A stretch of 49,528 nucleotides of DNA, taken from the IMG/VR virus record IMGVR_UViG_3300025110_000022, positions 1 through 49,528 of that record; one strand, 5' to 3'. Numbering within the stretch: the first letter of the stretch is position 1; each line of letters begins with the position of its first letter. The notes beneath the pieces are model-generated. The model was not told the origin of the DNA, did no database searches, and was given only the letters and a program-made list of their open reading frames with translations. Source of the stretch: a virus (taxonomy: Duplodnaviria > Caudoviricetes). Of the stretch, positions 3,469 through 36,800 are shown piece after piece. The position numbers were made by a program, and so were the translations under genes.

Positions 3469-3663
3469 ATGAAAGATCAGAACACAATTGGCAATGAAGA
3501 ATCTCAAGAGCAGAAATGGAATCGTGGATTAGATTTGTATATCGAATCCGTACATAAACCAGACAATGCTCTACGTGCATGTGCTCACAATCAAAAATGT
3601 TTCAATGAACTGATGTCCGTGAGAGACACAGTACTAGTTTACTTACAAACCCTACGCAAATAG
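3469..3663 (+). CDS. Hypothetical cyanophage protein
   Basis: 64-aa ORF in the gene-dense + strand run. Confidence 0.7.
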   Translation: MKDQNTIGNEESQEQKWNRGLDLYIESVHKPDNALRACAHNQKCFNELMSVRDTVLVYLQTLRK

Positions 3664-6933: not shown

Positions 6934-6949
6934 TGTATCGTATGTTACA
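6934..6949 (+). promoter_or_regulatory. NtcA-binding box
   Basis: TGTA-TCGTATGT-TACA matches the NtcA consensus TGTA-N8-TACA; intergenic, just upstream of a -35 box. Confidence 0.7.
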
Positions 6950-6956
6950 AACCTAC

Positions 6957-6985
6957 TTGACTATATAGTATTACTGTGTTAGTAT
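6957..6985 (+). promoter_or_regulatory. sigma70-type early promoter
   Basis: TTGACT(6957-6962)-N17-TAGTAT(6980-6985) with an extended -10 TG. Confidence 0.7.
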
Positions 6986-6993
6986 TAACACAA

Positions 6994-7217
6994 CGTTCGA
7001 CCCTTAGGGGTTGCAAGTAAGTCGCGGAACGGAGCGTTCATCCCATGATACCTCTTCTAGCATCTACTGTTTTACTCACCTGTGATTATTCAAAGGAACT
7101 TATATCTAATATAAGACCTTCGTTACTTTCAGATGAGGTGATGACTGAAGTTATTCAGTCTATCAAAGACAGTAGTGAGAAGAACTGTGATTGGGACGCA
7201 AACGACTGAAGGAACGG
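6994..7217 (+). ncRNA. Tandem glutamine riboswitch-like RNA (glnA / Downstream-peptide class)
   Basis: Two units CGTTC-P2-GCAA...GGAACG (6994-7031; 7035-7216) with AGTA and GAAG E-loop-type strands, upstream of a YRG-motif peptide gene. Confidence 0.75.
7045..7209 (+). CDS. 54-aa ORF embedded in the second aptamer (MIPLLASTVLLTCDYSKEL...KNCDWDAND)
   Basis: ATG directly follows the P2 5' strand TCCC; GGAG SD at 7031-7034; open to TGA 7207-7209; two Cys and a hydrophobic N-terminus. Confidence 0.7.
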   Translation: MIPLLASTVLLTCDYSKELISNIRPSLLSDEVMTEVIQSIKDSSEKNCDWDAND

Positions 7218-7250
7218 ATTAAAAACCCTACTACTTCAGGAGTAAAACTA

Positions 7251-7391
7251 ATGGCGAAAGTCACCTATCGGGGTGTCGAGTACGACACTTCAGAGTACAA
7301 CAAAAAAGTACTTAATGAAGCTCAACAGCATCGTAACCATGATTTAATGTATCGTGGACTTAAAGTTTCTAAGAAACTTGCTGCTGTATAA
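7251..7391 (+). CDS. DUF4278-type small protein (two YRG motifs)
   Basis: MAKVTYRGVEY...LMYRGLKV; AGGAG SD at 7238-7242. Confidence 0.85.
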   Translation: MAKVTYRGVEYDTSEYNKKVLNEAQQHRNHDLMYRGLKVSKKLAAV

Positions 7392-7412: not shown

Positions 7413-7440
7413 AAAGGGGGCTTGCAGGCCCCCTTTTTTT
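7413..7440 (+). terminator. Rho-independent terminator overlapping a putative downstream promoter
   Basis: AAAGGGGGC-TTGCAG-GCCCCC-T7; TTGCAG(7422-7427)-N17-TAATAT(7445-7450). Confidence 0.85.
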
Positions 7441-7470
7441 GTGCTAATATATGTTAGTGATAAATACCAT

Positions 7471-33826: not shown

Positions 33827-36800
33827 ATGCCTCTTAGTCGTCTGCAAAATTTCCTTAAGAGTGTCAGGGGAAATATATTATATGTAAACCCTACGGATCT
33901 TGATGCGACTGATAGTATCGAGAATCAGGGTAACTCACTGACACGCCCATTCAAGACTATTCAACGTGCTTTAGTAGAAGCTTCAAGATTTTCATATCAG
34001 ACAGGATTGTCAAACGATAGGTTTGCACAAACCACAATCCTCTTATATCCAGGAGATCATGTAATAGATAATAGACCAGGATACATCGCTAATGATGGTG
34101 GTGGTGGAACAGCAGAATATACTAGTAGAGATGGTACAACAGGACTAGCAATATCTCCATTTGACCTCACATCAAACTTTGATTTAGAATCATCAAGTAA
34201 CGTATTATACCAGTTAAACAGTATTCATGGTGGTGTTATTGTTCCACGTGGTACTTCTATTGTTGGACTTGACTTAAGAAAGACGAAACTACGTCCTAAG
34301 TATGTTCCAGACCCAGAAAATACTAATATTGAGACATCTGCTATATTCAGAGTAACTGGAGGATGTTATTTCTGGCAGTTTAGTATATTTGATGCTCCTC
34401 CAAATGGACAGGCATATAAAGATTATACTAAAAATACTTTCTTACCTAACTTTTCTCATCATAAGTTAACTTGTTTTGAGTATGCTGATGGTGTTAATAA
34501 TATTGATGTCAATGATAGTTTCTTAAACGTATCGAAGGACTTTACTGACCTTAACAACTATTACTATAAGATATCTGATGTTTATGATGATGCATCTGGT
34601 AGGCCAATTGCTCCAGATTATCCTTCTGGAAACGTTGATATTGAACCTGTTATTGATGAAACAAGGATTGTCGGACCTAAGGGTGGTTCTGTAGGTATCA
34701 GTTCTATCCGTTCTGGTGACGGTGTAACTGGTAATACTACTATTACTGTAGAGACTTCTACTGCCCTATCAGGACTTACTGTTGATATGCCATTACGTAT
34801 TGAGGGTGTTACTGCATCTGGATACGATGGACAAAGAACTGTTAAGTCTGTAGGAAGTGGTTCTACCACATTTACTTATGAAGTTGATACTATTCCATCA
34901 ACTTTATTTGAGACACCAGCAAATGCAAAAGCAGAATTACAGGTTGATACTGTAAGTTCTGCATCTCCATATATCTTTAACTGTTCACTTCTGTCTGTGT
35001 ACGGAATGAATGGTTTATATGCTAATGGTGCTAAGGCAGCTGGATTTAAGTCTATGGTTGCTGCCCAGTTCACTGGTATATCACTTCAGAAGGATCCAAA
35101 AGCATTTGTTAAGTACAATACTACTTCTGGTGTATATGATGACAGCACAACAATAGATAATATTACTGCTAATTCACTTGCAAGGTACAAACCTGATTAT
35201 AGTAACTACCATATTCGTTGTTCTAATGATGGTGTATTACAGATTGTATCCTGTTTTGCTGTTGGATTTAATGGACATTTCTTAGCAGAAAGTGGTGGTG
35301 ACCAATCTATTACCAACTCTAACTCTAACTTTGGTGCTACTGGACTTATTGCTGATGGATTTAAGGAAAATTCATTCTCTAGGGATGATGTAGGTTATAT
35401 TACACATATTATTCCTCCTAAGGAGATTACAACATCTGATGCTGCTCTAGAATTTGTATCATTAGATGTTAATAAGACTCTTAGTGTAGGTAATACATCA
35501 AGATTGTACCTTTATGACAAGACTAACTCTGCTGTTAAACCAGAAACTGTACTACAAGGTTTCCGTTTAGGTGCCAAAGTTGATGATGAATTAAAGGTTC
35601 TTATTCCTCTTTCTGGGGTATCAGAAGAGTATAGTGCTAGAATTATTATGCATAACACTGCATATTCTTCTAACGAATCAAGTTCTGTAAAGAGATTTAC
35701 TCTTGATAGGTCTGCTGTTGGTATTAATAGTATTACTAACAGTACTTTAACTTTAACTGAGGCCCATAACTTCCTTTCAGGAGAAAGTGTTAGGGTTATT
35801 TCTGAAAATGGACATTTACCTGATGGTATTGATGAGAAATTAACTTATAATGTTATTGATACTGATATTGATAGTAGTTTAAGTACTAAGCAGATTAAGT
35901 TAGCACAGAACGAAACAGACGCACTTGCTGATAACTTTGCTACTCTTAACAATAAGGGTGGTATTATCACTATTGAGTCTAGAGTTTCTGATAAACTTGC
36001 TGGTGATGTAGGACACCCTGTTCAGTTTGATAGTGGAGAGAAACAGTGGTATGTAAACGTTGGTACTGCTGCCACTCAGAATAATATCTATTCTACTGTT
36101 ATTGGATTTTCTACTGCTATAGGAACTAATACTCCTAGAAGTTATATTTCTAGAAAGTCTGATGATAGATCACAACAGGATACTCTATACCGTGCTCGTT
36201 ATGTAGTACCTGCTGGTGTATCTTCTGCACGTCCTCCAATTGATGGATACGTTGTTCAGGAAAGTTGTGGTGATATTGAAACCACAGCAAACATTCAGTT
36301 AGTCACTCTTACTAATGCTGTTCAGCAACGCAATGAGAGATTTATTGCTGATGCAAATTATAATAGTAGTACTGGTATTGCTACCATTACAACTGAGATA
36401 CCACATAACTTAGAGTCTGGTGCTCAGGTTCAGATACTTAATGTTGTAAGTACTAACAACACAACTGGTGTTGGAACATCTGGATATAACTTTAAGAGAG
36501 AAGTTACTGGAATTATCTCTGATAGGTCATTCTCTGTTGCTCTAACTGATGATCCAGGAACGTTTGATAATGATACAAGTACAAGAACTATAAGTCTTCC
36601 ATACTTCAAGAAGAAGGATTACGCAACTAATTTCTATACTTATAGATCTACTGAAATTAAGAAGCATGTTAAGGATCAACAGGATGGTGTTTATCACTTA
36701 ACGATATTAAACTCTTCTAACAGCCCTAATATAAGTCCATTCAGTAGTGAGAAGTTCTCACAGAATATTACTGACTTATATCCACAGGTTGATAGAGATA

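Follow-up and report, generated by a model that had tools for sequence, protein, structure and literature searches.

The usual picture of a riboswitch places its aptamer upstream of whatever it controls. Host glutamine riboswitches located before DUF4278 genes are ON switches (PMC6212724, PMC6698751), and for the ON switches in the host gifB and Prochlorococcus leaders a helix sequestering the ribosome binding site was proposed, as described in the accessible part of PMC6212724. The glutamine pocket is formed, according to the accessible part of PMC6698751, by C1:G59, G22, G2:C58 and the long-range pair 23-60. Glutamine riboswitches have also been reported in cyanophages and in a methylophage (PMC9964418, PMC9602691, PMC9004378). 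In the accessible parts of the literature no description was found of a gene within a glutamine aptamer or of interlocked aptamer cores; PMC12379486 and PMC7266159 add nothing on this point.

The stretch of DNA analyzed here (the window) is a 49,528-nt (49.5-kb) fragment of a T4-like marine cyanophage, in which psbA, PhoH, tail tube, baseplate, purN and thyX genes were found. The element under study is a small unit flanked by genes on the purN side and on the thyX side. It consists, in this order, of an NtcA-type box, a sigma70-type promoter, a structured leader, a DUF4278-like gene and a terminator (Table 1).

Table 1. Features of the element (window coordinates, except for the S-TIM5 gene)
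Feature	Position	Strand	Basis or remark
NtcA-type box TGTA-N8-TACA	6934..6949	.	just 5' of the -35 hexamer
sigma70-type promoter TTGACT-17-TAGTAT	6957..6985	+	predicted start near 6991
Double-core glutamine-I type aptamer	6994..7217	+	covariation, RNAalifold, predicted fold
Outer P1	6994-6998/7212-7216	+	predicted, RNAalifold
Outer P2	6999-7003/7008-7012	+	predicted
Outer long-range pair	C7014-G7217	+	predicted
Outer E-loop	7016-7019/7208-7210	+	predicted
Outer P3	7020-7024/7203-7207	+	covariation
Inner circularly permuted core	7025..7202	+	covariation
Inner P1	7027-7031/7035-7039	+	closed by loop GAG
Putative Shine-Dalgarno GGAG	7031..7034	+	10 nt before ATG
Inner long-range pair	G7032-C7199	+	double change in 1 of 204 listed leaders
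Inner P2	7041-7045/7192-7196	+	encloses nested gene
Nested gene, 54 aa, phrog_504 / T4-GC_430	7045..7209	+	profile match, conserved frame, purifying selection
Predicted anti-aptamer strand 7234-7239 with AGGAG site 7238-7242	7234..7242	+	pairs with 7206-7211
DUF4278-like (IF17-like, YRG-repeat) gene, 46 aa, phrog_5049	7251..7391	+	PF14105, E 2.3e-5
Intrinsic terminator-like hairpin with T run	7413..7441	+	predicted from sequence
S-TIM5 outer-loop gene	L367:635-835		phrog_6471-type two-Cys cargo

Relatives were collected using DNA patterns and single proteins as queries. Two pattern scans of viral contigs yielded at least 120 loci each; adding three initial loci and two phage records to the matches listed gave 204 distinct leaders (hereafter listed leaders), of which the inner loop is filled in 167 and empty in 37. 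Because DNA patterns fix some of the core bases (the outer long-range C in the relatives is set by the search pattern itself), the counts were repeated on loci found by protein only (69 loci, 4 of them cut by contig ends; 55 distinct). The central motif is carried by approximately 4300 stored viral stretches, as estimated from 2 of 64 parts. Among cellular genomes (11 of 64 parts scanned) the full layout was present in 2 of 121 pattern loci, on contigs of 7 kb and 5 kb which are probably phage. The element occurs in the cultured phages S-TIM5 (both loops filled), S-BM1, S-SSM6a and S-RIM2.

Of 175 listed leaders, 125 have a GTA-N8-TAC motif in the 75 nt upstream, mostly 38-48 nt ahead of the aptamer, compared with 19 of 660 background windows. 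The NtcA consensus and the position typical of activation (-41 to -44) were taken from the accessible part of PMC5714215. In the window the center of the box lies about 50 nt upstream of the predicted transcription start, off the typical activation position, so that the box may serve either activation or repression. Further TGTA-N8-TACA matches at window positions 35389, 40014 and 46101 fall inside ORF spans of the tail region, and are probably due to chance. The sigma70-type promoter alone was not above shuffled sequence (3 found, 2.4 expected); its placement was the same in the relatives inspected. In one RNA run 0.23 of the words were present, and one 153-nt contig was identical to positions 7159-7308. 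The contig was not used as evidence for expression, because contigs cannot show transcription.

The original prediction, made from the sequence of the window, was that a protein-coding gene is nested in a riboswitch aptamer. Its coordinates were all exact (GGAG 7031-7034, TCCC 7041-7044, ATG 7045, GGGA 7193-7196, 148 nt enclosed), and the frame has the described properties, 54 open codons ending in WDAND, a TGA at 7207-7209 and two Cys codons. The ORF is a genuine gene: its product matches phrog_504 (E 7e-8, profile search), and the S-BM1 copy is annotated as T4-GC_430. An insert was present in the same loop in 167 of the 204 listed leaders. All but one of these 167 have an ATG 9-16 nt after the start of the CGTTC strand (9-11 nt in 165 of 166), and 160 of the 166 ORFs end at the same TGA/TAA; of the exceptions, three stop earlier in frame, two are frameshifted and one is interrupted by an internal stop. 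Two Cys were retained in 165 of 166 listed homologs. The pooled dN/dS, computed without the start codon and the RNA-overlapped tail, was 0.30 (62 disjoint pairs; bootstrap 0.27-0.34), with pN<pS in 58 of 62 pairs; interior codons vary freely. The arrangement is not a product of chance, and the outcome that would have spoken against the original prediction, common frameshifts or a missing ATG, did not occur. Two leaders are unusual: in one with a filled inner loop (L206) the gene has its own AGGAGG within the loop and starts later than the other 166, and in L087 an internal deletion, which may be a natural variant or an assembly error, has taken out the inner P1 strand together with two thirds of the nested gene from its start, so that one aptamer-like unit is left.

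Relatives of the nested protein were found in 311 of 50,697 phage records, all of them named cyanophages, and 224 clusters matched it in the 50% library, while the word-index protein search gave a single, near-identical match. The copies in S-BM1, S-TIM5 and S-SSM6a are annotated as hypothetical. No Pfam family matched the protein. AlphaFold models it as a hairpin of two helices (pLDDT 81.7) that is bridged from residue 11 to residue 46, as would fit a Cys13-Cys48 disulfide; the N-terminus is hydrophobic, and Cys13 and Cys48 flank the predicted helical hairpin, which is likely closed by a disulfide between them. The fold search returned no match at E<=0.001 in BFVD or PDB (the best BFVD entry was a P-SSM2 predicted protein, E 0.02), and the ESM Atlas search hypothetical clusters only. 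Two candidate identities were discarded. A lipoprotein reading of the N-terminus was dropped by eye, as a basic n-region is absent and the Leu is out of register for a lipobox, and a likeness to CP12 received no profile support.

No second member of the family was found in the window. Three divergent proteins retrieved 87 loci, of which 65 were nested, 4 were cut by contig ends and 18 were free-standing, without an aptamer. The free-standing phrog_504 genes (L369-L386) mostly stand behind their own AGGAG and a TAAATA motif, presumably late-promoter-like, and often just 5' of a gene resembling window 3469-3663 (phrog_495). They are a possible source of the captured gene: a free-standing member of the family would probably have been captured into the loop, where the aptamer's own URA became its stop.

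The original prediction had placed the gene in the second of two separate tandem aptamers. Covariation shows a different topology, in which a circularly permuted inner core is inserted in P3 of one outer aptamer; the glutamine-I type scaffold, with stems covarying across the nested gene, was upheld. None of 200 shuffles folded as well as region 7035-7215 (z -3.97). Inner P2 pairs 1-4 were canonical in all 167 listed filled leaders, with U-A, C-G and A-U swaps present. In six of the 204 listed leaders the first GGAACG and the second CGTTC strand, forming inner P1, change together, whereas the last strand is unchanged, as is the first where visible (five of the six). P3 is formed by two covarying segments, one following the first E-loop strand and the other preceding the last GAA: pairing was found at 157 of 192 positions over 28 types, compared with 0.72 in partner shuffles, and none of 2000 shuffles, which did not remove relatedness, reached the observed value. 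The inner long-range pair is C-G in 203 of 204 listed leaders and G-C in one (L183), the swap being in the nested register. When 28 gene-free leaders were folded with RNAalifold, the nested outer P1, inner P1 and both P2 stems were returned and P3 was not called.

The loci found by protein gave the same picture, with the full 5' side kept in 54 of 55 and the full 3' side in 53 of 55. A paired change from U-A to C-G turns Asp into Gly in 7 of 55 of these loci, with no mismatch in the 46 scored, and GCA is used for the Ala in 53 of 53, thus in the tail of the gene RNA pairing outranks the amino acid. Taken together, the architecture, with the gene enclosed in a glutamine-I type double aptamer of interlocked cores, is well supported, and it is real, widespread and selected. 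The folding of the insert itself was rejected as special evidence: it was above chance (median z -2.7, n=43), but control segments downstream, which may include the terminator, folded almost as well (median -2.3, n=31).

Further features of the leaders are noted here. Four leaders (L030, L047, L420, L422) have a long ORF upstream of the inner CGTTC strand, at the position of the GAG loop, which matches only phrog_24910 and by eye looks endonuclease-like; in two others (L040, L114) a remnant of roughly 65 nt occupies the GAG loop. In L420 and L422 the 3' strand has decayed. An optional hairpin occurs after the last GGAACG, before the DUF4278 ribosome site (L003, L045, L065, L075 and others).

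The GGAG sequence had been described as the linker between two aptamers. Its coordinates stand, but it is made up of the last base of inner P1 and the 3-nt loop. G7031 and G7032, its first half, are predicted core bases, equivalent in the inner core to G59 and to the G of the long-range pair. The loop starts with GAG in 133 of 167 filled and in none of 37 empty listed leaders. On a FastTree tree of 169 DUF4278 genes, 10 independent pairs were available for comparing GGAG with cargo, of which 6.9 on average were concordant and none was ever opposite (median p 0.016, range to 0.06). The 34 of 167 listed filled leaders lacking GGAG belong mostly to one subgroup, and outer-loop genes have none. 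The start codon belongs to the stem as well, since the pair A7045-U7192 extends inner P2, and the stop codon is composed of the final base of P3 and two bases of the E-loop.

The outer P2 loop can also be occupied. It contains a second two-Cys gene (phrog_6471 and others) in 47 of the 204 listed leaders, starting 10-16 nt into the aptamer. These genes, whose starts are approximately 13-19 nt after the predicted transcription start and lack a Shine-Dalgarno site, are nearly leaderless. By eye, the cargo types are similar in either loop. In the 204 listed leaders only the inner loop was filled in 104, both in 38, neither in 28 and only the outer in 9, and the outer loop was not found in 25.

The downstream gene was identified as DUF4278-like, as predicted: its PF14105 score (25.1 bits) is 0.2 below the cut-off of 25.3, and a YRG motif was present in all 172 downstream proteins visible at 35 aa or more among the listed leaders. 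The predicted anti-aptamer strand overlaps the start of its AGGAG site and pairs with the segment that holds the stop codon of the nested gene. All six pairs were found in 153 of 196 scored leaders (of 205 listed records), and the strands covary, the E-loop A facing T in 38 of 39 and the E-loop G facing C or T in 153 of 157 listed leaders. A control helix slid by one base gave 0.76, compared with 0.92 for the actual register, and the unconstrained fold of the window forms the helix. The anti-aptamer helix would thereby offer a concrete mechanism for the DUF4278 side of a switch.

We propose that the element is a two-output translational switch that responds to glutamine by silencing the nested gene and turning on DUF4278; we consider this about as probable as not. 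At high glutamine both cores would close, drawing G7031 and G7032 of GGAG and A7045 of the start codon into the fold, and 7206-7211 would be kept in P3 and the E-loop, so that the DUF4278 ribosome site is freed. At low glutamine 7206-7211 would pair with 7234-7239 and block DUF4278, and ribosomes would load on the nested gene, most easily before the 3' partners 150 nt away are transcribed; their transit would keep the aptamer from forming. The idea that aptamer folding and translation of the nested gene exclude each other was retained from the original prediction, although the anti-aptamer helix would also permit translational coupling, which would blur a strict either/or. When nitrogen is ample, by analogy with host IF17, a small glutamine synthetase regulator would be made, and when it is scarce, the two-Cys protein. 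In its broader form the proposal is a riboswitch that folds around its gene, with a two-site interlocked aptamer whose loops are exchangeable gene slots, aptamer bases providing the ribosome site, start and stop of the cargo, and host glutamine reciprocally controlling the two-Cys protein and the IF17-like peptide during infection; the chances of this whole picture being right seem to us evenly balanced.

Equilibrium folding was rejected as proof of the switch. The DUF4278 site was unpaired to 0.35 in the free, 0.33 in the nested and 0.34 in the ORF-open state, and with the site about equally paired in all three states the computation does not show switching. Moreover, in the model inner P1 and P2 already form in the absence of ligand (0.76 and 0.86), thus the start may be masked whatever the glutamine level.

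The riboswitch might control DUF4278 alone, with the ribosomes of the nested gene stripping the aptamer and melting the anti-aptamer helix at the stop, in which case DUF4278 would be on if either glutamine binds or the nested gene is translated. This is unlikely in our view, but must be taken seriously: the stop codon lies within the helix 7206-7211/7234-7239, thus terminating ribosomes could also switch DUF4278 on, and the great majority of the listed nested ORFs (160 of 166) end exactly there. However, 28 of 37 listed gene-free leaders likewise have the URA, thus the position of the stop need not reflect coupling, and the overlap of GGAG with predicted core bases suggests that the nested start is under ligand control.

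Alternatively, the element could be an ordinary DUF4278 ON switch with P2 loops that accept cargo of any kind; the nested gene would borrow the promoter and be translated only co-transcriptionally, independently of glutamine. The occurrence of all four loop states among the listed leaders, with at least 24 changes of state on the 169-row tree of a short gene, the free-standing members of the family and the inner helices predicted to form without ligand are all consistent with it. It is nevertheless quite improbable, because the ATG keeps its place 9-11 nt into the core in 165 of 166 listed cases and is never found deep in the loop, and because GGAG is gained and lost along with the cargo.

A tandem of two independent glnA aptamers, both without P3 and the second carrying the gene, would be compatible with the near invariance of all four P1 strands, with the separate listing of such halves in the accessible part of Weinberg et al. 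2010, with the threshold Rfam score of the second half alone in L161 and with a 5' half that may form transiently during transcription, but this arrangement is very hard to reconcile with the six double changes (C-C and G-G mismatches in tandem, pairs when nested; outer strand visible in five), the L183 swap, the covarying P3 and a tandem fold that is 5 kcal/mol worse. It is just as improbable that the fold is right and the ligand is other than glutamine, or that one core binds and the other is structural: a loop of 3-6 nt joins the long-range G to C1, for which no solved precedent was found, and the outer core of the window has G.U at 6999/7012 where most have A.C, but the contact bases of both cores are kept in the protein-found loci (5' side in 54 and 3' side in 53 of 55) and the NtcA box and the DUF4278 context point to nitrogen.

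In this element a riboswitch aptamer encloses a selected gene, and the published tandem picture of these RNAs gives way to a fold of two interlocked cores. How cyanophages sense host nitrogen, a question of long standing, also becomes accessible to experiment, with the natural gene-free versions as controls. At the gathering threshold Rfam gave no match in the window; over the first 45 nt of the element RF01739 scored 18.5 bits (cut-off 35) and RF01704 18.6 bits (cut-off 33). A gene-free relative (L010) scored 43.6 bits with RF01739, which aligned it as a single aptamer and treated the inner unit as a 38-nt insertion in P3, and none of four gene-filled relatives reached the gathering score. 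Because the insert breaks the RF01739 model, we filed the element as a glutamine-I variant and not as a plain member, and as standard Rfam scans miss the gene-filled form, glutamine-type riboswitches in cyanophages are undercounted.

The closest known relative is the glutamine-I aptamer (glnA RNA, RF01739; Synechocystis gifB/IF17 leader, PMC6212724), with which the element shares P1, P2, the E-loop, P3, the long-range pair and the contact bases; the three-way junction of P1, P2 and P3 with the loop E motif is present in the outer core, and C1:G59, G22 and G2:C58 in both cores of the window. As described in the accessible part of PMC6212724, the gifB/IF17 leader also resembles it in the downstream DUF4278 gene, the NtcA-type promoter and the proposed anti-RBS helix released by ligand. 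In contrast to glutamine-I, the phage element has a permuted second core in P3, a 148-nt gene in the inner P2 loop and a C-G long-range pair, and is phage-borne. The gene-free phage form stands in the glnA alignment of the 'tandem' RNAs of Weinberg et al. 2010 (PMC2864571; part 128 of supplement 5), where it was entered as separate P3-less halves, whereas covariation here makes it interlocked; short motif searches of the accessible part of that alignment, a weak test since gaps break motifs, revealed no gene-filled rows. Glutamine-II (Downstream-peptide, RF01704), according to the accessible part of PMC6698751, has the same pocket with a C-G long-range pair, is an ON switch for DUF4278 peptides and shows that the pocket tolerates altered strand connectivity. 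Unlike in glutamine-II, the pseudoknot-closing 3' helix is broken or absent in the phage element, and the ORF is inside, not downstream. Annotations of phrog_504 / T4-GC_430 and phrog_6471 describe the gene alone, with no function or RNA link recorded. Homing endonucleases in group I introns, the tag frame of tmRNA and leader-peptide attenuators all combine a folded RNA with a reading frame that lies in it or runs across it, and ribosome transit changes the fold. The element differs from these in that a metabolite aptamer hosts a conserved folded protein, whose start and stop are taken from bases of the aptamer.
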